DNA of 64,000 nucleotides from an uncultured Syntrophobacterales bacterium (GTDB taxonomy: Bacteria; Desulfobacterota; Binatia; UBA9968; JAJDTQ01): contig CAZFIU010000022.1 of NCBI GenBank assembly GCA_964519455.1, positions 461 to 64,460 on the forward strand, in the 5' to 3' direction. Under the pieces are notes generated by a model. It saw nothing but the letters and a program-made list of their open reading frames with translations. It ran no database searches and was not told where the DNA came from. The position numbers were made by a program, and so were the translations under genes. The stretch's first letter is position 1. Each line of letters starts with the position of its first letter. Of this stretch, positions 17,912-25,774 are shown piece after piece.

Positions 17912-18937
17912 CTACGGTTCCTGTTCGCCCCTCGGCCCGCCGAAGGCCGACAAGTGCTCCTTGAGAGTGCGGAACCCGGCTTCGTTCAGCCCCGTCGCGG
18001 CCTCGATCACATCCCAGGTCACCCCGACCCTCAGAAAGCCCTCAACTACCTCCACCTTGCCGCGTTGTGCGCCTTCCGCCAGCCCTTGGCCACGGCCTTC
18101 CTCACGTCCTTGGCTCCGGCCTTCCTCACGGCCTTGGCTCCGGCCTTCCGCTCTACCCTCTTCCAGGAGTTGTTGAGCATATGACATGATCTCGCCTCCC
18201 TGCTCGCGGCCACGGCGCCGCAACGCTTCGTTGAAAGCCAGCGCTCCCGCTTCATCCTGTGTCGCCATCACGTACACCATGAATAGACGAATATAGTTCA
18301 CCCCGCCACCTGAAAACAACGTCGCCAGCAACCTCGCCGCGGCGTCCATCGCCAGACCCACGTTCCGTCCATAGGCCGCCATCATCAACAACTGCGCGAT
18401 GCGCCCCTTGACCCCTCCCTCCACGCCGTCCGGACCGAGACTCGTCTGGTCCACCAGCACGTGCTCGAACCGAGGCACCCACGGCCATCCCCGAACCGCC
18501 GCAGGAAACAGGTCCGCGAACTCCGTCGAGTGCCCCCATCCGCGGCCTCCCTGGTAGAACACCACCGGCACGATGGGATGCAACCCCGGCCGCCCCGCCT
18601 CGTCCCGCAGCCCCGCATCCCAGATCCGGCAGCAATACTTGAGCAACCGGAACCGCATCCATGCGTCCGACGTCGATTGATGCTCGAACAGCAGGTACAG
18701 CCATATCCGCTCTGTGTCCTCCCCATACACCGCCTCGTACAGCAGGTCCGACTCGCTCTCCCGCAGGGCGTCGTCCAGGAACGTTCCCTCCAGCAGGTTC
18801 AGCGTCTCCCAATCCACCCTGTCCCGGAATCCGGCGGGCAAAGCCGCCCGCAACAGGCCGGCGGCTTCCGCCGCATCCGAAAACACCGCGCGGAACAGCC
18901 GGTCGTGGGGATGCTCTACTTCGTGGGCCATGGACAC
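17912..18937 (-). CDS. Rpn-family recombination-promoting nuclease / putative transposase (YhgA-like, PD-(D/E)XK)
   Basis: N-terminus HDRLFRAVFSD...LLYEAVYGEDTERIWLYLLFEHQS is characteristic of Rpn/Transposase_31 proteins. The C-terminus carries imperfect tandem 8-aa repeats (GRAEGRSQGREEGRSQGREEGRGQG). Confidence 0.8.
   Translation of the reverse strand: MSMAHEVEHPHDRLFRAVFSDAAEAAGLLRAALPAGFRDRVDWETLNLLEGTFLDDALRESESDLLYEAVYGEDTERIWLYLLFEHQSTSDAWMRFRLLKYCCRIWDAGLRDEAGRPGLHPIVPVVFYQGGRGWGHSTEFADLFPAAVRGWPWVPRFEHVLVDQTSLGPDGVEGGVKGRIAQLLMMAAYGRNVGLAMDAAARLLATLFSGGGVNYIRLFMVYVMATQDEAGALAFNEALRRRGREQGGEIMSYAQQLLEEGRAEGRSQGREEGRSQGREEGRGQGLAEGAQRGKVEVVEGFLRVGVTWDVIEAATGLNEAGFRTLKEHLSAFGGPRGEQEP
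18084..18155. repeat. Three 24-bp tandem repeats inside the Rpn-family gene (ccttggc(c/t)(a/c)cggccttcctcacg(t/g))
   Basis: Direct repeats are visible in the sequence and encode the octapeptide repeats of the protein. Confidence 0.8.
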
Positions 18938-19405: not shown

Positions 19406-20020
19406 TCACGGATAGGTGAACGTCGGAGGAAGTACGTTGCCAAGGAATGGCCGTCCGAAGTTGTTGCGGATTGTCAAGGCGGATGTCGGATCACGGCGAA
19501 AACGTGAATCGCCAATCTCCCCCTTCACCTTGATGCCGACGTGCTGCTTGAGCGCCTCCTGCACCACTACCTCCACGTCCTCGATCCGCTGCCCCGGATG
19601 ACAGGTCACTTCCGCCCAGCAGAACCAAGTGCGGTCAAGCATTGCCTTGACCGTTTCCCGACTTGTCTTGTCACCCCGACCCTTGACCATGTCGATCGCG
19701 CTTGAGTTTAAGACTCCTACCGGATCCGCTAGGAAATCAACTACGTTCCTCGGGATAGAGAAACACACAGGGTTCTTAAACCAGGAAATCCGTTGCCCGT
19801 CGCTGTCTCGTTTGCCGGCCCCGTGCACATGTTCGTACCAGCGCCTGCCGATGTCGTCTGACTTACCAACGTAATAGCCCGCGTAGGCGTCGCCGGTGGT
19901 TGCCATCACAAAAATGTAGACACCAGTGCCAAGGTAGGGGCAATACCAGTTCGAATAGGGCTCGGGCTCGATCGCTCCCATCGGGACCGATTTCCAATGT
20001 AGATCATAGGTGCCGGACAT
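19406..20020 (-). CDS. GIY-YIG nuclease family protein
   Basis: Motifs GVYIFVMATTGDAYAGYYVGKSDDIGRRWYEH (GIY ... YVG ... R ... E). The internal start MSGTYDL is chosen; the ORF-track N-terminal extension overlaps the upstream gene and is low complexity. Confidence 0.7.
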   Translation of the reverse strand: MSGTYDLHWKSVPMGAIEPEPYSNWYCPYLGTGVYIFVMATTGDAYAGYYVGKSDDIGRRWYEHVHGAGKRDSDGQRISWFKNPVCFSIPRNVVDFLADPVGVLNSSAIDMVKGRGDKTSRETVKAMLDRTWFCWAEVTCHPGQRIEDVEVVVQEALKQHVGIKVKGEIGDSRFRRDPTSALTIRNNFGRPFLGNVLPPTFTYP

Positions 20021-20097: not shown

Positions 20098-21096
20098 TCA
20101 CCTGTGAGACGAGTAACCGCGATGGTGTGCGGCGAGCGAAGCGCACATTGCCGCAAGCCGCTGGCGAAGGCTGGGCGGCTCCAGGATTGTCACGCTTTCT
20201 CCCCATGTCACGAGATGCCAACAAATTTCTTCGACGCCTCCCGCCCTGAAACGCACCGTCAGCGAGTCGTCGCTGTTCTCAGTGATGGTCTGGCTTGGAT
20301 GGAATTGAAACGCCTTGGCGTCCTGCGCGGCGTCGGCATCGAAGTGGAGCACCACGTCGAAGGGTTCCTCCTGGAAAGTGCCAAATGAACGCTCGGCGTA
20401 CCGCCTCAAATCGAAAGCCGGGTCGCCTTCGAATGGCTCATCGGTGATCTGCGCCTCGCTGATGTTTCCGAGTCTCCAGAGCCTCGGCTTGTTTCCCTGA
20501 TCGGTTCGTCCCACCAGGAAAGCACGGTTGCCGTAAAGAACCCCATAGGGGCAAACCCGCTGGCGGTCCCGCCGCCCCGTTCCTCGTGAAGAATATCTGA
20601 TATAGATCTTACGGTACGTCGTCACGGCCTCTCGCACGAGCGAAAGCAGGCCCTCTTCGAAGCTCTCCCTAGGGCCGGCCCGCATCGCGAGGCCTTCCGC
20701 CTCCATGAGAGCCTCAAGCGCAGCGTCGAACTCTTCGGAAGAGTGTTGGTGCGACGCAGCCCGCAGTTTGACCACAAGACCGCTCACGCGCTCTGCGAGG
20801 TCGGCACGACCTAGACTGCCAGCCACCGCTTCAAGGTCCGCAAGGTCCTCAGGTGTGATGGAGATAAACGGGTTCAGGGCGCGCGACCGAAGCCGCCAAT
20901 GAATCCGACGGTCGCCACTGTCCGTGTCCACAACCTCCAGCGGCCCAAATGCTGCCTCGACGGCATCACGCATTCGCTCCGCCGTACGTCGACTTACGGA
21001 GAACTCGCCCTGGATGTCGGCGATGGTTACGCCGCGGTGGCTTCCTTGGAGGTAGATGGCAAGGCAAACAAGCTCTACGAGGCGTTCGTGACGCAT
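20098..21096 (-). CDS. WYL-domain transcriptional regulator (HTH - WYL - WCX; YafY/BrxR/CapW-like)
   Basis: N-terminal HTH (LVELVCLAIYLQGSHRGVTIADIQGEFSVSRRTAERMRD), a central WYL-like segment (IYIRYSSRGTGRRDRQRVCPYGVLYGNRAFLVG) and a C-terminal extension. Confidence 0.85.
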   Translation of the reverse strand: MRHERLVELVCLAIYLQGSHRGVTIADIQGEFSVSRRTAERMRDAVEAAFGPLEVVDTDSGDRRIHWRLRSRALNPFISITPEDLADLEAVAGSLGRADLAERVSGLVVKLRAASHQHSSEEFDAALEALMEAEGLAMRAGPRESFEEGLLSLVREAVTTYRKIYIRYSSRGTGRRDRQRVCPYGVLYGNRAFLVGRTDQGNKPRLWRLGNISEAQITDEPFEGDPAFDLRRYAERSFGTFQEEPFDVVLHFDADAAQDAKAFQFHPSQTITENSDDSLTVRFRAGGVEEICWHLVTWGESVTILEPPSLRQRLAAMCASLAAHHRGYSSHR

Positions 21097-21122
21097 TCAT
21101 TCTCGGGGCGGAGGGGGGATTG

Positions 21123-21731
21123 TCACCAACGGTGGAGCCCGCCCCACCCGTGTTTATCAATCTTCCCGTAACGCCAAGCAGGAATACCTTTGGGGCCAGC
21201 GCTGCCGATCAGGAAGAGATACTCCGCATTGCTTGCTTCTCCGCATTGGTTGTTAACTGCAACGTGCATACGACATAGGATGTCGAGTTTCCGTTCGAGC
21301 CACATCCTCCTCGCTTCGATGTTCAACTGGTCTTCGGGGTAATCGTAAAAGACCAACACCTTCAAGGGAGAACGGAACATCAATAGCTTCCACATCTCCG
21401 TTTCCACATCTGCCCCATTCTCGTGCTCAACTAGTACGTGCATACCATCTGGATACACTCCTCCACCGCCAGGACGGAAAGTAGCCGTGTCTTCGTCATA
21501 GAAGACGGTATCCAGCGTGTACCATTCCCTCCCCATCGTCAGAGTTCGCCCGGCAACAGGAGGTAGCCTTACCGACAATCGTTCCAGGAAAGAACCGTTC
21601 CCTGCCAGCATGTATCGCGTCCATTCGCGGTCGGTCTGGTAAGCTTGTCGAATGTCGTCTTCCCGCTGCAAAACGTCGTCTTCCCACTGTTGGCAAAATG
21701 CAATGCAGAACTCTTCGGCAGTAGGCATCAA
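21123..21731 (-). CDS. Hypothetical protein (no confident family; possible nuclease-like core VLVEHEN...E.EMWK)
   Basis: 202-aa ORF tightly packed between the AAA gene and the WYL gene, with no recognisable domain. Confidence 0.55.
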   Translation of the reverse strand: MMPTAEEFCIAFCQQWEDDVLQREDDIRQAYQTDREWTRYMLAGNGSFLERLSVRLPPVAGRTLTMGREWYTLDTVFYDEDTATFRPGGGGVYPDGMHVLVEHENGADVETEMWKLLMFRSPLKVLVFYDYPEDQLNIEARRMWLERKLDILCRMHVAVNNQCGEASNAEYLFLIGSAGPKGIPAWRYGKIDKHGWGGLHRW

Positions 21732-21780: not shown

Positions 21781-23868
21781 CTACACGGCAAAACCTATTC
21801 TCTGCGGGTAGGCTGACTTGGCTTCACATTCCTCCCGCAACATTTCCACCACGGCTTTCGGGCGTCTGCGGGAGCCCAGAATCTCCGCCTTTCGGCGCAC
21901 GAGGGCAAAGTCACCCAGTGTCAGGGTGTGAAAACTCGCAATGTCCTCCGGAGGCTCCATCCCCAAGTAAACACGGAAAGCCGCCCTGGCCTGCTCGGAC
22001 GACAGGTAGTCAAGCGCAATCTTGAAGGTGAATCGCCGCAAAGTCGCCGGGTCGAGACGCGCTCCGAAGTTGGTCGTGCAAGCAACCGGGAAGGGATGGC
22101 TCTCCATCCAAGTCAGCATCTCGTTGACTTGGCTCACCTCCCAGTGCCATTCGGCGAGGCGCCGGTCGGCCAGCAGTGAATCGGCTTCGTCGAAGACGAG
22201 GAACGCCTCGGCGTCGCGGGCCTCGGCAAAGGCTTTGGCGATGTTCGTCTCCGTTCCACCGACCCACATCGACATCAGGTCGGATGCACGCTTCTGCACG
22301 ACTTCGAGGCCGAGCCGGCCGGCGAGATACCGGACATATGCGCTCTTTCCCGTGCCCGACGGCCCTTGAAGACACAGCGAGAAGCTCCGAGCACCGCTGG
22401 CAACGAGGCAGTCTGCGAGTTGCACCGGGTCCATGTCGGCGCGGATCAGTGCTGGATCGTACTTGTCTGGTGTCCGTTGACTTGTCGGAGTATCGCCTGA
22501 CAGCACCCGAGCGAGTCCGCGCACGCCGCGATGCACGTCGGCCACGGTCCGGCCACCCATTCCCGCGGCCGCGGTGACGCCGGAAGCCACTCCCGGCGTT
22601 ACGTCAAATTCTCGTGCGAGGGCGCGGGCATCTTCCGGGTCCGCCTTGATGCCGTGGTGCGTCAACTGTCGCACCCAGATGCGTTCCCGTACCTTGGGAG
22701 GCGGTTGACGCAGTTCCAGGGCGAACATCATGCGGCGCAAGATGACGGGACTGGTGGAACGGGCGGCGTTCGATGTCCACAGGATTGGCACCGGCGTCTG
22801 CTCCAGTAGCCTATTCATGAACACTTTCGAGCCTTCAGCCGAACGCTCGGGGACACGGCGCGGCCCCAACCATGCCGCAAGGACCTCCCCCTGTCTGGAG
22901 AGCAAATCCTCCATCTCGTCGAAGAGCAGGATCGAGCGCCGGTCTCCGGCCAGCAAGCCTTGAGCGAGCCGGAGATCCTGTATCCGCTCGCGACGGGAAG
23001 GTTCGTCGCCCGTGGCATCCGATTCTCCCACGACGTAGAGCGGAGCTGCCAGCCGCGAGGCCAAGGTCCGGCAGAACTCCGTCTTGCCCGTGCCGGGCGG
23101 CCCATAGATGAGCACATTGACACCCTTCTGGCCGCTCCGTAACGCTCCGCTCAAGATCCGTGCGAGATGGTCCCGATCGCCGGCGACATGGTCGAAATCG
23201 GACCAGAGCAGCTCGCCAGGGCCGGCCTCGTCAAGTAACAGGCGCTGCACGTTGGCGTCATGCTCGTTCGGAACCCAGTGCAATCGAGTCAACCGGTCGA
23301 TAGTCGCCAAGTCGCCATCGTTGTCGATGGATACCAACCCCGATGTTATGAGGGGCGCGTCGGGAGCCAAGCGGCGATGGACCGTGCCGGCCGACAGACC
23401 GAGCAAGCGTGGGAAAAGCGGGTTGTTCATTCCGAAGCCGTTTCCCCTCCAGTACGGACTCTCGCAAATCGCGTCGACCATCAACGCCACAGGTGATCCG
23501 GTACGGTGTCGCAGCAATAACTCCAGGATCGCGGTATCGGTCCGGGAAAGACGCGTAGCCTTTGCGAGACGACGGAGGCGCCTCGCGGTCCGATCCGGGC
23601 GTACGTGTTGAGCCGCAAGCAAGGCGCCTTTGGAAGCCTCTCCCACGCGCTGCCACACCCGCGCCGGGAGATCGTAGTCTCGCAACCCTCGTTCCAATGC
23701 AACTTGGGCTTCATCGTCCTCTCGCAGCAAGTACGGAAGACCCAGTTGGTCCTCATTCTCTCCTAGCCACAGCACCAGGTCCTTGGCCTGCTGGTCGCGG
23801 CACTGGAGGTGCGGAACGACGTTCGACAGGTAGAAGAGGATGAGACGGCGTTCGTATGCAGACAGCAT
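21781..23868 (-). CDS. Tandem classic-AAA+ ATPase (N-terminal roughly 240-aa unknown domain followed by two AAA modules)
   Basis: First module: Walker A VLIYGPPGTGKTE, Walker B ILLFDEMEDLL, sensor-1 TSN. Second module: Walker A LQGPSGTGKSA, SMWVGGTETNIAKAF, Walker B FLVFDEADSLL, sensor-1 CTTN and the arginine-finger region LDPATLRRFTF. The true start MLSAYERRL is at 23866-23868, preceded by a G-rich RBS. The ORF-track extension to 25083 is an antisense artefact over the LLM gene. Confidence 0.8.
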   Translation of the reverse strand: MLSAYERRLILFYLSNVVPHLQCRDQQAKDLVLWLGENEDQLGLPYLLREDDEAQVALERGLRDYDLPARVWQRVGEASKGALLAAQHVRPDRTARRLRRLAKATRLSRTDTAILELLLRHRTGSPVALMVDAICESPYWRGNGFGMNNPLFPRLLGLSAGTVHRRLAPDAPLITSGLVSIDNDGDLATIDRLTRLHWVPNEHDANVQRLLLDEAGPGELLWSDFDHVAGDRDHLARILSGALRSGQKGVNVLIYGPPGTGKTEFCRTLASRLAAPLYVVGESDATGDEPSRRERIQDLRLAQGLLAGDRRSILLFDEMEDLLSRQGEVLAAWLGPRRVPERSAEGSKVFMNRLLEQTPVPILWTSNAARSTSPVILRRMMFALELRQPPPKVRERIWVRQLTHHGIKADPEDARALAREFDVTPGVASGVTAAAGMGGRTVADVHRGVRGLARVLSGDTPTSQRTPDKYDPALIRADMDPVQLADCLVASGARSFSLCLQGPSGTGKSAYVRYLAGRLGLEVVQKRASDLMSMWVGGTETNIAKAFAEARDAEAFLVFDEADSLLADRRLAEWHWEVSQVNEMLTWMESHPFPVACTTNFGARLDPATLRRFTFKIALDYLSSEQARAAFRVYLGMEPPEDIASFHTLTLGDFALVRRKAEILGSRRRPKAVVEMLREECEAKSAYPQRIGFAV

Positions 23869-23984
23869 GACAACCCCCCATTTGTGACGTCCATGGGGGA
23901 CCGTAGCGTGAATGTGCGTCAGTTTCGGACGTACCCGGCTGTCCTCGACGCAGATTTTTCTGGAAGTGGCGAGAGGCGCGGTCC

Positions 23985-24992
23985 TTACACCCGCGGCAGC
24001 ACCGCCGAACCGAACAGTTCCATCGCTGCGAGGATGTCCTTCTGCTCCAGCCCCGGCGTCCAGTCGAAGCGCAGCAGCAGCAAATCCGGCTTGAGCGACT
24101 CCTCGTAGGAGCGGATCTCTTCGATGCAGTCCTCGGGGGAGCCGAGGATGAAGCGGTGGCGGGCGAGGCGGTCGAAGTCCCAGGTTAGCTCGTCGGGGTT
24201 GGTCATGGCCTCGTCCTGGCCCCACTTGACGTAGACGTCGCGGTAGAGCTTGTCGAGGCAGGGGCGGGCCTTGGCCACGGCCTCGTCGCGGGTGGGGGCG
24301 ACGAAGCATTCCCGGACCATGACCAGGGCGCCGGCGCCTGGCTTGCCGGTGTCGGCCCATGCTTGGCGGAAAAGCGTAGTCTGTTCCTTCAACTCCTCGA
24401 TGGCTGAATGGGGTCCCACGAGCCAGCCGTCGCCGATGCGGGCGGCGCGCTTGACGCCCGTGTCGCCGTTGGCGGCGATCCAGACGGGCGGGCGCGGCTT
24501 CTGCAGCGGGCGCGGGGCGATGGTGACGTCCTTCAGTTCGAAGGCGTTGCCTGAGAACGAGACGTGTTCCTCGGTCCAGAGACGCTGGACGATTTCGACA
24601 CCTTCCACGAAACGGTCGAAGCGTTGCTTCTTTGTGAGGTTGAACGCGTCCAACTCCTGCTGCCGGTAACCCAGGCCGAAGGAAAAGACGGCGCGGCCCT
24701 CGTTCATGACGTCGATGGTGGCCAGCTCCTTGGCGATGACCACGGGGTCGTGGAGGCCGAGGAGCGTGGCGGCGGTGCCGACGCTGGCCCGCTTGGCCTC
24801 GGCGCAGAGCCGGCCCAGGAGCGGCACTTGGTGCAGCCGCTGAAAGCCGGGGATGTTGTAATGCTGGCCCATGGTGATGGCCTCGAACCCGGCTTCGTCG
24901 GCCACCCGGGTCTGTTCCGCCAGCGTGGGCAGGAGGGTCTCGGGGGGCTTCTCGATGGAAACCTGGGGATTGAGTTGGATACCGAATCTCAT
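23985..24992 (-). CDS. LLM-class (luciferase-like) flavin-dependent oxidoreductase
   Basis: 335 aa of TIM-barrel LLM family (MRFGIQLNPQ..., ...FSFGLGYRQQELDAFNL...). Confidence 0.9.
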   Translation of the reverse strand: MRFGIQLNPQVSIEKPPETLLPTLAEQTRVADEAGFEAITMGQHYNIPGFQRLHQVPLLGRLCAEAKRASVGTAATLLGLHDPVVIAKELATIDVMNEGRAVFSFGLGYRQQELDAFNLTKKQRFDRFVEGVEIVQRLWTEEHVSFSGNAFELKDVTIAPRPLQKPRPPVWIAANGDTGVKRAARIGDGWLVGPHSAIEELKEQTTLFRQAWADTGKPGAGALVMVRECFVAPTRDEAVAKARPCLDKLYRDVYVKWGQDEAMTNPDELTWDFDRLARHRFILGSPEDCIEEIRSYEESLKPDLLLLRFDWTPGLEQKDILAAMELFGSAVLPRV

Positions 24993-25167
24993 GGTGAACT
25001 CCTGTGGCGGCCGCGGGGGGAAGGTCCTCGTTCCAGGACATTGGCGTCAGGACATCCCGCCCAATTCCCGCGGCATGCCTCAAGGCGCATTGTCAGCCGC
25101 AAGTTCGAGACGTGAACGAACGGGGATCGGCGTAATCCGCCGTCTCCGCGACTTGCAGGCGGCGACT

Positions 25168-25482
25168 TCACGCTCGCCTCGTACCGGACAACCGCTCCGC
25201 GGTAGTCCGCTCCCGGCGCGCTTGCGCCAACTCATAGCTCGCCTGCATTCGCATCCAATGCTCCGCCGTGCCCCAACCTATTTCCTCCAGCGCCAGCGCC
25301 ATGTTCGCGGACACGCCCGCCTTGCCGTTGAGCAGGCGCGAGAGCGTCCCGCGTTCACAGCCCAGGCGGGCCGCCGTCTCAGTAACATTCCAGCCGGTTT
25401 CTTCCATGCTCTCGCGGATCAGGTCGCCCAAATGCGGCGGGTTCAGCATGGCGCCTACACGTTCGGCCTGGTGGTCGCTCAT
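25168..25482 (-). CDS. higA: HigA-family antitoxin (XRE-type HTH)
   Basis: 104 aa with HTH TETAARLGCERGTLSRLLNGKAGVS. It follows the toxin gene on the same strand, which is the characteristic Hig order (toxin first). Confidence 0.8.
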   Translation of the reverse strand: MSDHQAERVGAMLNPPHLGDLIRESMEETGWNVTETAARLGCERGTLSRLLNGKAGVSANMALALEEIGWGTAEHWMRMQASYELAQARRERTTAERLSGTRRA

Positions 25483-25501
25483 CGTCCTTGCTCCCTTCCT
25501 G

Positions 25502-25774
25502 TCAGTGATAGTCGACGAGGTCCAGGTCTACGACTTCGCCGTCCACGAACCTGCAGACGACGCGCCAGTTACCGGATACGCGAACACTCCACTGACCCGC
25601 CCTGTCTCCCTTCAAAGGATGTAACCGAAAACCGGGTGCGTCAGCGCTGCGTGGGTGCGTCGCCTCTTGCAGCCGGAACAGGATGCGCCGAAGTCGTGGC
25701 ACCAGACTGGCGGGGAGCTGAGCCGGGTCGTCCCGCTCGTGCAGTGCCCGCAAGCCCTTGTGCCGGATCTTCAT
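25502..25774 (-). CDS. higB: HigB-like RelE/ParE-superfamily toxin
   Basis: 90 aa (MKIRHKGLRALHERDD...HPLKGDRAGQWSVRVSGNWRVVCRFVDGEVVDLDLVDYH), the typical plasmid-killer HigB signature. Confidence 0.8.
   Translation of the reverse strand: MKIRHKGLRALHERDDPAQLPASLVPRLRRILFRLQEATHPRSADAPGFRLHPLKGDRAGQWSVRVSGNWRVVCRFVDGEVVDLDLVDYH

Follow-up and report, generated by a model that had tools for sequence, protein, structure and literature searches.

The window, the whole stretch of 64,000 nucleotides that was analysed, contains at positions 21781..23868 of the minus strand a gene for a 695-aa protein (with its stop codon), which we identified as a tandem classic-AAA ATPase from its translation, an identical database entry, Pfam AAA and a fold match to p97, Cdc48 and Rix7. 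The first-pass annotation had described a tandem classic-AAA protein at this position, and we found two AAA stretches, each with a full set of motifs, as it had claimed. The ATG lies at 23868, with a ribosome-binding site, GGGGGG, at 23874..23879. The identical entry (P0001) uses the same start, and the N-terminus ML(S/T)AYE is common to all homologues, which supports the start at 23868. Mechanical ORF calling had buried the gene in an artefactual 1100-aa ORF (21781..25083, minus strand) that runs through the neighbouring LLM gene (23985..24992, minus strand; PF00296 at 8e-57). This ORF had been taken to be antisense to the LLM gene, which was wrong. Both are on the minus strand with frames offset by two bases, so that the overlap is one of the same strand in another frame.

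The first AAA module (D1, residues 246-460; 22489..23133, on the minus strand like all other parts of the protein given below) was recognised by its motifs and by a match of D1 alone to the Cdc48/p97 D1 module (3.9e-9, Cdc48 residues 250-414). It carries the Walker A motif GPPGTGKT (residues 256-263; 23080..23103), the Walker B motif LLFDEMED (residues 314-321; 22906..22929), sensor-1 WTSN (residues 364-367; 22768..22779) and the arginines of LRRMMF (residues 377-382; 22723..22740). The second module (D2, residues 481-695; 21784..22428), which matched both D1 and D2 of Cdc48 (1.5e-18), carries the corresponding motifs GPSGTGKS (residues 502-509; 22342..22365), LVFDEADS (residues 557-564; 22177..22200), CTTN (residues 597-600; 22069..22080) and LRRFTF (residues 610-615; 22024..22041). 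In an alignment of 35 homologues with 57-89% identity, the catalytic residues of D1 (K262/T263, D317/E318, N367, R378/R379) and of D2 (K508/S509, D560/E561, N600, R611/R612) were invariant or at least 90% conserved. The Walker motifs and arginine fingers, which the first-pass annotation had singled out for inspection, are intact in both domains, and both AAA modules of the protein are apparently fully active. D2 also has a canonical pore loop-1, MWVG, within 22255..22272, in which G537 was invariant and W535 and V536 were at least 90% conserved among the 35 homologues. The loop found at the pore-loop-1 position of D1, VVGESDATGDEPSRRER (22984..23034), is non-aromatic and acidic, yet conserved. 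Because this loop is non-aromatic, threading through D1 is uncertain.

Pfam AAA (PF00004) matched the protein in two stretches at 7.7e-31, with 107.7 bits against a cut-off of 21.2. An AF2 model of the 695-aa protein (pLDDT 77), compared by Foldseek, aligned over ~550 columns with p97, Cdc48, Rix7 and NVL at E values of ~1e-19 (including 3.7e-19). The structural comparison with Cdc48/VCP that had been proposed was thereby made, and the Cdc48/p97-style D1-D2 arrangement read from the motifs was borne out in fold and in sequence, with alignment to both rings of p97/Cdc48. These results show that the product of 21781..23868 is a type-II (D1-D2) classic-clade AAA protein of the Cdc48/p97 architectural type. 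Membership of named families was rejected for the CDC48 family proper (TIGR01243; 53.1 bits against a cut-off of 802.65), IetA/IteA (NF042959; 90.7 against 510, with D2 only), FtsH (37 against 600), EccA (34 against 466.65), and RFC and ORC (scores far under curated cut-offs), and the CbbX and SpoVK models were absent among the 25 best NCBIfam matches. If the protein were an unannotated housekeeping chaperone or protease regulator of the Cdc48/VAT, FtsH, ClpA/B/C, CbbX, SpoVK or EccA type, a generic AAA similarity such as we observed would be expected. We regard this explanation as very improbable, since every curated equivalog or subfamily score in NCBIfam lay far under its cut-off, the N-domain shows no relation to CDC48_N or to any known adaptor domain, and the family combines a patchy distribution with low GC and variable neighbourhoods. 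A firm placement in a well-characterised family of this kind, which would have spoken against the first-pass reading, was not found among the NCBIfam models. The tandem AAA family is widespread and uncharacterised, and is annotated solely as 'AAA family ATPase'.

Residues 1-243 (23140..23868) form an N-domain that is private to the family. A 240-aa domain of no recognisable family had been reported here, and our searches agreed: the domain had no match to Pfam families, PDB sequences, PDB folds or viral folds, and Pfam CDC48_N matched neither the whole protein nor the domain by itself. The AF2 model of the domain (pLDDT 76, pTM 0.77) is helical with one hairpin, and comprises a helical part (residues 1-135, with the greatest variability in 1-90) and a winged-HTH-like part at residues ~141-215. 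The mean pairwise identity was 0.34 for residues 1-90 versus 0.80 for D2. The candidate HTH-like segment LLGLSAGTVHRRL (residues 155-167; 23368..23406), followed by a beta hairpin, falls in a region of helix-helix-hairpin secondary structure in the predicted models, and the weak Pfam hints to HTH_AsnC and HTH_24 (E 0.15-0.25) were not significant. DNA binding by this part of the N-domain was considered and found unsupported, the net charge of the N-domain not being consistently basic. Searched alone, the N-domain gave 688 clusters at 50% identity; in the best 150 of these its position was invariably N-terminal or nearly so, and the proteins did not exceed ~740 aa.

At its other end the protein terminates in RIGFAV (21784..21801), which contains a conserved [IVLM]-G-F positioned 0-2 residues from the C-terminus. 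The ending [IVLM]GF plus 0-2 residues was found in 91 of 113 full-length homologues, and G692 and F693 were invariant in the set of 35. Tripeptides that dock on ClpP have the form [LIV]-G-[FL], which the tail resembles, although the AAA tripeptide is C-terminal and not in a surface loop as a ClpP-docking tripeptide would be. It is a speculative thought, prompted by the tripeptide resemblance alone, that the C-terminal [IV]GF points to docking on a partner ring such as ClpP.

The most informative feature of this locus lies outside the coordinates of the first-pass annotation, and is the operon that the ATPase gene forms with a DriD-type WYL activator under a DriD box. The gene at 20098..21096 (minus strand) encodes a 332-aa transcription factor of wHTH-3HB-WYL-WCX architecture (Pfam WYL 9.4e-10, WCX 4.4e-17). 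It matched DriD in the PDB (chains 9pfq and 8tp8) with 7.4e-59 across residues 1-315, and the sole other PDB match at E 0.01 was a distant one to PafC (3.4e-7). The recognition-helix segment RRTAERMRDAV is identical between the WYL protein and DriD; DriD reads DNA through contacts of Arg36, Arg37, Thr38 and Arg43 (PMC10853764). To judge by these matches, the AAA-linked WYL protein is a DriD-type activator and a close homologue of Caulobacter DriD, and we infer that it would bind ssDNA and activate transcription.

We compared the gene neighbourhoods of 81 AAA loci. The WYL family was present in 62 of them and was the sole conserved neighbour, with no other family occurring in more than 11. In 46 of the 62 WYL-bearing loci the WYL gene stood at position +1 on the same strand, and the gaps between the AAA and WYL genes ranged from -20 to 240 nt, with several 4-nt overlaps. 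In nineteen of the 81 the examined locus contained no WYL gene at all, and in seven loci an ADP-ribosylglycohydrolase took the place of the WYL gene. Comparative genomics thereby shows a predicted core operon of two genes, in which the AAA gene is promoter-proximal and the DriD-type WYL gene is second. Our literature searches turned up no paper connecting this tandem AAA family to a WYL or DriD regulator; the AAA-WYL operon is widespread and undescribed. The tight coupling of the two genes, to the point of 4-nt overlap in some loci, would also suit an ATPase that acts as a feedback regulator of its partner, unfolding ssDNA-bound WYL dimers or WYL-RNA polymerase complexes and so resetting the response. 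A self-activating operon needs a shut-off, and the proteasome-linked PafBC of actinobacteria offers a precedent for a WYL activator joined to proteolysis (PMC9186387). We nevertheless think this unlikely, since it fits poorly with the 19 loci that lack a WYL gene, with the seven that pair the ATPase with an ADP-ribosylglycohydrolase instead, and with N-terminal residues 1-90 that are far more variable than recognition of a WYL protein would require.

The promoter region of the operon contains a DriD-type operator, TACGTCCGAAACTGACGCA, at 23915..23933 (minus strand), with its CG core beginning 63 nt ahead of the ATG of the AAA gene. Nowhere else in the 64-kb window does the pattern TACGWC-N7-GWCGNA match exactly. 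DriD is an activator that is itself activated by ssDNA and whose site lies over the -35 element (PMC9186387, PMC10853764, PMC13004042), with the box consensus CGNC-N7-GNCG (PMC10853764). Its sites include ATACGTCCGTTTCTGGCGCAT in the didA promoter, which has been validated and used experimentally, and ATACGACCGTTTCTGTCGCAAT in the CCNA_03891 promoter (PMC13004042). The operator at our locus matches the didA site in 15 of 19 positions, and the consensus of the AAA boxes, aTACGaCCGaATcTGACGcA, resembles both. A box of the form CG[AT]C-N7-GNCG was found at -58 to -89 of the AAA start in 60 of 78 loci, compared with ~6 loci expected from a background of 0.32 loose matches per 200 bp. Strict boxes were similarly concentrated: among 90 in 1.42 Mb, 57 fell inside a 70-nt interval at the position of the AAA-upstream box. 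The box was absent from all seven loci in which an ADP-ribosylglycohydrolase replaces the WYL gene. In thirteen loci with the box, none of the next three genes downstream was a WYL gene, and five loci with the WYL gene lacked the box.

A putative -10 element, GCTACGGT (23900..23907, minus strand), follows 7 nt after the box, and a G.TAg element is conserved among the loci, its spacing from the box being constant. By our own reading, the didA promoter would have a -10-like GCCAAGGT at the same 7-nt spacing. Comparative genomics shows the predicted box of the AAA promoter overlapping the -35 with the -10-like element 7 nt downstream, which is the position used by DriD-activated promoters. A second near-match to the box within the 201-aa gene directly downstream of the AAA gene (21269..21287) has one mismatch and was set aside, the total of such matches being at chance level. 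Scans for sigma-70 promoters and terminators gave counts at the level of shuffled sequence. The WYL gene may have a promoter of its own; one sigma-70-like match ahead of it (21126..21099) was within chance. In Caulobacter, DriD does not activate its own promoter (PMC13004042), and positive autoregulation of the shared AAA-WYL operon is therefore not a given.

Two accessory genes complete the neighbourhood of the ATPase gene. Between the AAA and WYL genes lies a 201-aa gene (21123..21728, minus strand; GC 53%) with a PD-(D/E)XK-like motif formed by residues that are invariant among its homologues (D74, E102-H-E-N105, E112..K115). It has 41 homologues and belongs to no Pfam family. We rejected this gene as a conserved partner: none of the other 80 loci contains it, L001-L003 have unrelated genes at +1, and its distant homologues occur elsewhere as solitary genes. 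The WYL gene is followed by a 204-aa GIY-YIG-like gene (19406..20020, minus strand), whose Pfam GIY-YIG match of 7.5e-4 is weak and under the cut-off. A homologue of this gene separates the AAA and WYL genes in L001, and in L008 one follows the WYL gene. Frequent companions of the operon in other genomes were PD-(D/E)XK nucleases, ADP-ribosylglycohydrolases and AddAB-like helicase-nucleases, and the best explanation of the downstream nucleases, ADP-ribosylglycohydrolases and AddAB-like genes is that they are variable accessory modules of one stress/conflict island, represented in the window by the 201-aa and 204-aa genes.

The arrangement had been called rare in bacteria, which does not hold for this family. 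We found at least 514 confirmed matches in the GTDB contigs of 185,579 species (one genome per species), in addition to the 688 N-domain clusters; the family spans many phyla and extends to plasmids. It occurs patchily and in variable gene neighbourhoods, identities of 52-60% are maintained across phyla, some genomes hold several AAA copies, and the locus studied here has low GC (63/53/61/56% versus 66%). By these signs the family is horizontally mobile. The AAA-WYL pair is carried on plasmids of cultured Fuscovulum, Leisingera, Rhodoferax, Pantoea and Novosphingobium, and the operon is found in culturable Pantoea, Azospirillum, Paracoccus, Ralstonia and Rhodoferax. A phage collection yielded one unverified contig with 34% identity to the AAA protein.

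This mobility, with its patchy and horizontal spread, multiple copies per genome and plasmid-borne genes, would be compatible with a dedicated anti-phage and possibly abortive-infection system, in which the WYL protein senses phage ssDNA and the ATPase, with or without a nuclease, ADP-ribosylglycohydrolase or HEPN protein, is the effector, as in IetA. The WYL activator DdaA can govern both DNA-damage and anti-phage genes (PMC12392091). The best match in the defence libraries was indeed IetA (PADLOC 1.4e-25; NCBIfam IteA 9.9e-26), and neighbours across loci included GmrSD, AAA_15/DUF3226, HipA, HEPN, PLD, REase-ARP and PDC-S26-like nucleases. Several observations make this explanation doubtful. 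The IteA score (90.7 against 510) came from D2 only, no PADLOC system model fitted, and only ~10 of 144 downstream neighbours matched defence models. No IetS-type or other protease occurred among the 25 commonest Pfam families of those 144, and in the window the neighbours of the ATPase gene are the 201-aa, WYL and GIY-YIG-like genes, with no IetS serine protease adjoining. The regulator is of DriD type, and BrxR and CapW, whose structures are present in the PDB, were not matched in the PDB search. The core AAA-WYL pair also lacks an obvious toxic effector.

Because the second gene of the core operon encodes a DriD-type ssDNA sensor, it is probably DNA damage or phage attack that turns the ATPase on. 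We consider it fairly probable that the locus represents an ssDNA-inducible p97-like unfoldase module, with the AAA protein under the control of the DriD-type WYL protein. DNA damage, or the processing of phage or plasmid DNA, would generate ssDNA; the ssDNA-bound WYL protein would then dock on the box and recruit RNA polymerase, and the AAA protein would be induced with more regulator alongside. Once made, the AAA protein would assemble into a hexameric double ring, the variable N-domain would select a protein or nucleoprotein target, and D2 would pull on or unfold that target. The outcome would be a bacterial counterpart of p97-type segregase action in genome stress. More tentatively, we see as possible a specific form of this module in which the DriD-type sensor calls up a p97-like segregase that strips or unfolds DNA-bound or phage proteins through its fast-evolving N-domain, with possible hand-over to ClpP, and that doubles as inducible immunity. 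That would amount to a prokaryotic analogue of p97-dependent chromatin extraction, and to a bacterial genome-stress pathway not recognised before.

A picture is emerging of WYL-domain ssDNA sensors (DriD, PafBC, DdaA, CapW, BrxR) as switches that govern DNA-damage and anti-phage responses independently of SOS, and the outputs known for them comprise repair enzymes, division inhibitors, nucleases and defence systems. If our reading of an ssDNA-inducible unfoldase module is right, a fully active Cdc48/p97-like unfoldase directly under a DriD box, in a conserved and horizontally spread operon, would be a new output class for these sensors. The promoter, regulator and ATPase would all be defined, which would give an easy experimental handle, and a family of several hundred clusters annotated just as 'AAA family ATPase' would acquire a testable role.

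Compared with Cdc48/p97/VAT and Rix7/NVL, the protein has the same tandem classic-clade D1-D2 modules with Walker A/B, sensor-1 and second-region-of-homology arginines, the same aromatic-hydrophobic-Gly pore loop in D2 (here MWVG) and the same fold over ~550 columns, while its identity to them is only 16-20%. It differs from Cdc48/p97 in an N-domain that is not of the CDC48 type (double-psi barrel plus beta-clam) and is without a known fold relative, in the acidic, non-aromatic loop at the pore-loop-1 position of D1, and in being a bacterial, apparently horizontally mobile protein that is predicted to be coupled transcriptionally to a WYL sensor. With the DriD regulon of Caulobacter crescentus (didA, bapE, recJ, dnaG, CCNA_03891/01149) the locus shares a full-length DriD homologue and a box closely similar to the didA and CCNA_03891 sites, but the targets named in PMC9186387 and PMC13004042 include no AAA ATPase. 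Here the regulator gene shares an operon with its presumed target and follows it, whereas Caulobacter driD is divergent from its neighbouring target and not autoregulated (PMC13004042). IetA of the Ietas system (IetA-IetS) provides the top defence and NCBIfam model for D2, but its profile of ~370 positions describes a single AAA module, so that the match is limited to D2; the N-domain is not shared, and no IetS-type protease partner was seen among the neighbours of our ATPase. PafBC and the Pup-proteasome/Mpa system of Actinobacteria likewise combine ssDNA-sensing WYL activators with an AAA unfoldase and proteolysis machinery, to which they are genetically linked (PMC9186387, PMC11804915). PafC, however, is only distant to our WYL protein (3.4e-7), and the AAA locus has no pupylation or proteasome gene. 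Mpa, moreover, forms a single AAA ring and carries coiled-coil and OB domains. The BrxR and CapW regulators have the same wHTH-WYL-WCX architecture and defence-type genes nearby. They are repressors that usually sit ahead of the system they regulate or diverge from it (PMC9122601, PMC9122588, PMC11662680), in contrast to the DriD-type regulator described here, which is downstream in its operon with a box of activator geometry. The CDC48-like tandem ATPases of Type III-A CoCoNuT are also prokaryotic, p97-like and associated with conflict systems (PMC11090510). They keep the Walker motifs only in the C-terminal ATPase and have LRR and beta-barrel domains at the C-terminus (PMC11090510), whereas our protein has two intact modules and carries its extra domain at the N-terminus.

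The AAA gene (21781..23868, minus strand) translated without interruption into 695 amino acids, identical to a 695-aa database protein (P0001), from an ATG at 23868 with GGGGGG lying 5' of it at 23874..23879. The homologue alignment showed that this start position, ML(S/T)AYE, is common to all homologues. A mechanical ORF list did not show the gene separately; it made up the two-thirds at the 3' end of a longer ORF of 1100 aa (21781..25083), the upstream third of which overlapped the luciferase-like monooxygenase (LLM) gene (23985..24992; PF00296, 8e-57). The first-pass annotation had described this ORF as running antisense through the LLM gene. Since the LLM gene is likewise a minus-strand gene, shifted by two bases from the frame of the 1100-aa ORF, that description was wrong; the ORF is a same-strand, other-frame read-through of a kind common in 66% G+C DNA.

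The motifs that had been read from the sequence alone were all found in place in both AAA modules. D1 carries Walker A GPPGTGKT (residues 256-263), Walker B LLFDEMED (314-321), sensor-1 WTSN (364-367) and the arginines of LRRMMF (377-382); the D2 counterparts are GPSGTGKS (502-509), LVFDEADS (557-564), CTTN (597-600) and LRRFTF (610-615). Across 35 aligned homologues (57-89% identity), the Walker lysine, the Asp-Glu pair of Walker B and the asparagine of sensor-1 were invariant in each module, as were R379 and R611, with R378 and R612 at least 90% conserved. Pfam AAA matched twice (7.7e-31), D2 matched both rings of Cdc48/p97 (1.5e-18), and D1 alone matched the D1 ring of Cdc48, Rix7 and p97 (3.9e-9). 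The structural comparison proposed in the first-pass annotation agreed: an AlphaFold2 model (pLDDT 77) aligned with p97, Cdc48, Rix7 and NVL over ~550 columns (E about 1e-19, 16-20% identity). Given the intact motifs and the Pfam, Cdc48/p97 and fold matches, the AAA protein is therefore a genuine type-II classic-clade AAA protein, and both modules are probably active. The pore loop of D2, MWVG, is canonical (W535 and V536 at least 90% conserved, G537 invariant); the corresponding loop of D1, VGESDxxGxEPxRxER, is conserved but acidic and non-aromatic. Firm placement in a characterised family was not found among the curated families, as the protein reached the cut-off of none: it scored 53 bits against 802.65 for CDC48, 90.7 against 510 for IteA, 46 against 650 for CdvC, 37 against 600 for FtsH and 34 against 466.65 for EccA.

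The N-terminal domain had been said to belong to no recognisable family, and this held in every collection searched. Residues 1-243 gave nothing significant in Pfam (best E 0.06) or, with a 21-sequence profile, among PDB sequences (best E 0.11), and a separate AlphaFold2 model of the domain (pLDDT 76, pTM 0.77) found no fold match by Foldseek in the PDB (best E 0.42) or among viral structures (best E 0.74). The domain has two parts, one helical and one a helix-turn-helix plus hairpin around LLGLSAGTVHRRL...SGLVSIDNDGD, the latter bearing only a faint resemblance to winged-HTH families in Pfam; net charge gave no pointer to DNA binding. When 1.84 billion representatives were searched exhaustively with a profile, 688 clusters were returned, and in the best 150 of these the domain always stood at or near the N-terminus of full-length proteins of 680-740 aa; by this profile evidence the domain is therefore private to the AAA family. 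Residues 1-90 are less conserved than any other stretch of the protein (mean pairwise identity 34% vs 80% for D2), in keeping with a specificity module. At the other end of the protein, 91 of 113 full-length homologues have [IVLM]-G-F within 0-2 residues of the C-terminus, G692 and F693 being invariant in the 35-sequence alignment (window tail at 21784..21801, minus strand); a minority end in AKxKRRERQ instead. Clp ATPases use a tripeptide of the [LIV]-G-[FL] class to dock on ClpP, and the docking tails of proteasomal ATPases sit at the extreme C-terminus. The AAA tail is of the Clp-type class but is placed as in proteasomal ATPases, and we regard a docking function as a lead only.

We called ORFs in 81 loci and clustered all neighbours. 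The sole conserved neighbour family was a ~335-aa HTH-WYL-WCX protein, present in 62 of 81 loci, while any other family occurred in at most 11. In 46 loci the WYL gene was the next gene downstream of AAA and shared its strand, and in another 11 it stood at +2 or +3, with AAA-WYL intergenic gaps of -20 to 240 nt that included several 4-nt overlaps. Annotated pairs also occur on plasmids of Fuscovulum, Leisingera, Rhodoferax and Pantoea, and in Novosphingobium the two genes are divergent. The window WYL gene (20098..21096, minus strand; Pfam WYL and WCX), parted from AAA by a 201-aa insert, encodes a protein that matched solved Caulobacter DriD structures end to end (7.4e-59, residues 1-315; PDB codes identified as DriD in PMC9186387 and PMC13004042). 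The segment RRTAERMRDAV is identical in both, and DriD contacts DNA through Arg36, Arg37, Thr38 and Arg43 (PMC10853764). DriD is a homodimeric activator; once its WYL domain has bound ssDNA, it binds ATACGAC-N7-GTCGTAT sites overlapping the -35 of target promoters (PMC13004042, PMC10853764). The AAA gene and the gene for this DriD-type factor form a conserved operon. A minor alternative reading of this pairing is that the AAA protein resets its own WYL partner.

The AAA promoter contains a conserved DriD-type box. In the window the predicted box, TACGTCCGAAACTGACGCA (23915..23933, minus strand), lies in the 116 bp that separate the LLM gene from AAA and is the single exact match to TACGWC-N7-GWCGNA in 64 kb. 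The looser pattern CG[AT]C-N7-GNCG occurred 58-89 nt upstream of the AAA start, mostly at 58-70 nt, in 60 of 78 loci, against about 6 expected from a background of 0.32 per 200 bp; with a stricter pattern, 57 of the 90 occurrences in 1.42 Mb fell within that single 70-nt interval upstream of AAA. The aligned consensus across loci was aTACGaCCGaATcTGACGcA, followed at fixed distance by G.TAg. The DriD sites in cryo-EM structures are ATACGTCCGTTTCTGGCGCAT (didA) and ATACGACCGTTTCTGTCGCAAT (CCNA_03891/01149) (PMC13004042); the window box and the didA site agree in 15 of 19 positions, and on our reading both sequences carry a putative -10-like element 7 nt past the box. Across the 78 loci, box and WYL gene occurred together in 47, the box only in 13 and the WYL gene only in 5; the box was absent from all seven loci with an ADP-ribosylglycohydrolase (ARH) in the WYL place. 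By comparison across loci, the conservation and position of the box and its likeness to the didA site strongly support direct control of the AAA gene by its DriD-type partner, with the geometry of an activator. Further boxes of consensus quality precede other island genes (L011 10723, 73 nt before an ARH-fusion gene; L082 13237; L057 12453; L024 7240; L003 5417; L086 7226), which suggests small local regulons.

Beyond the AAA-WYL core, island content is variable. Among 144 genes at +1 to +4 from AAA, the commonest Pfam families were ADP-ribosylglycohydrolase (7), PDDEXK_4 (6), DUF2779 (4), DnaB, NUDIX and GNAT (3 each), and REase-ARP, PDDEXK_1 and HNH_2 (2 each). One locus, L052, has a Pfam-confirmed pair of AddB-like (PDDEXK_1) and AddA-like (UvrD plus PDDEXK_1) genes; AddB-like cluster members also occur on the downstream side in L039 and L053 and on the upstream side in L075. 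On the Leisingera plasmid the AAA-WYL pair is followed by similar nuclease and helicase genes, in Fuscovulum it precedes a gene of the PD-(D/E)XK nuclease family, nuclease/helicase-type genes flank it in Novosphingobium, and Pantoea and Rhodoferax have a PLD-like gene with an SNF2 or DEAD helicase gene. The main rival explanation is that the operon is a dedicated anti-phage system; PADLOC matches among the neighbours were modest, chiefly PDC-S26 nucleases. Known WYL activators can serve both DNA damage and anti-phage roles, DdaA being an example (PMC12392091). We favour a scheme in which ssDNA would induce the operon and a hexameric unfoldase or segregase would act on a target chosen by the N-domain, possibly handing it to a peptidase. 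Endogenous DNA damage could supply the trigger, as could the processing of phage or plasmid DNA, and the evidence fits either.

Neither small gene of the window module belongs to the conserved core. The 201-aa gene between AAA and WYL (21123..21728, minus strand) matched no Pfam family; across 41 homologues D74, E102-H-E-N105 and E112..K115 are invariant, a pattern that may resemble the PD-(D/E)XK nuclease motif, with no profile match behind it. More distant homologues stand alone, adjoining luciferase-like monooxygenase genes (L088, L089). The 204-aa GIY-YIG-like gene (19406..20020, minus strand; weak match of 7.5e-4, below cut-off) moves relative to the core, following WYL in the window and in L008 (3227-4144) and lying between AAA and WYL in L001 (10234-10827). 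In the otherwise syntenic L001 the same LLM and FAD_binding_2 genes border the module. L001 lacks both the HigB-like toxin (PF05015, 2.9e-13) and HTH antitoxin pair (25168..25774, minus strand) found between the molybdopterin hydroxylase and LLM genes and the YhgA-like Transposase_31 gene (17912..18937, minus strand; 4.3e-38) with which the low-GC stretch of the window ends on its far side. In L014, L023, L032, L033 and L077, and as fused 620-aa forms in L009 and L011, an ARH (PF03747, 2e-66) takes the WYL place after AAA and the DriD box is missing; such loci come from Latescibacterota, Gemmatimonadota and some others. The order is AAA-WYL-ARH on the Fuscovulum and Leisingera plasmids, and Rhodoferax has a macro-domain gene nearby. 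AAA loci are recurrently linked to reversal of ADP-ribosylation.

A word-indexed search found more than 2,400 relatives of the AAA protein, and at least 514 matches to the family were confirmed when a single genome of each species was scanned. The best 80 genomic matches (L008-L087) were metagenome-assembled genomes throughout, from Binatia (85%; probably the lineage from which the window comes), Thermodesulfobacteriota, Bryobacterales, Latescibacterota, Gemmatimonadota, Acidobacteriota, Nitrospirales, Alphaproteobacteria and Gammaproteobacteria, and identity was still 52-70%. Many of their isolate labels (such as SB06xx_bin, APA_bin, COS4_bin and RHO1_bin) resemble labels used for marine-sponge microbiomes, which suggests that the family may be enriched there. 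Some genomes hold two or three copies, as paralogous AAA(-WYL) modules on CBDBIS010000005.1 (L036, L048, L056) and OY282433.1 (L020, L068) and at L025 and L078, the last with two copies in a single AAA-WYL-AAA locus. Cultured relatives (31-50% identity over residues 155-693) are located on plasmids or chromids of Azospirillum, Paracoccus, Fuscovulum, Leisingera, Rhodoferax, Novosphingobium, Sphingobium, Ralstonia, Pantoea and Pseudomonas. Against the 66% window average, G+C was 63% for AAA, 53% for the 201-aa gene, 61% for WYL and 56% for the GIY-YIG-like gene. The family is widespread and mobile, and a housekeeping role for the AAA protein is effectively excluded.

Several hosts of the AAA-WYL combination are culturable, which makes it amenable to testing. 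In the full-text literature searched, no paper linked a WYL or DriD regulator to this AAA family, and the accounts of DriD targets in PMC9186387 and PMC13004042 name no AAA target. The CDC48-like ATPases of CoCoNuT form a different family, in which the first module is inactive and the extra domains are C-terminal (PMC11090510). Taken singly, the AAA protein (classic, type II) and the DriD-type regulon are of known kinds; what the literature searched does not describe is their combination.
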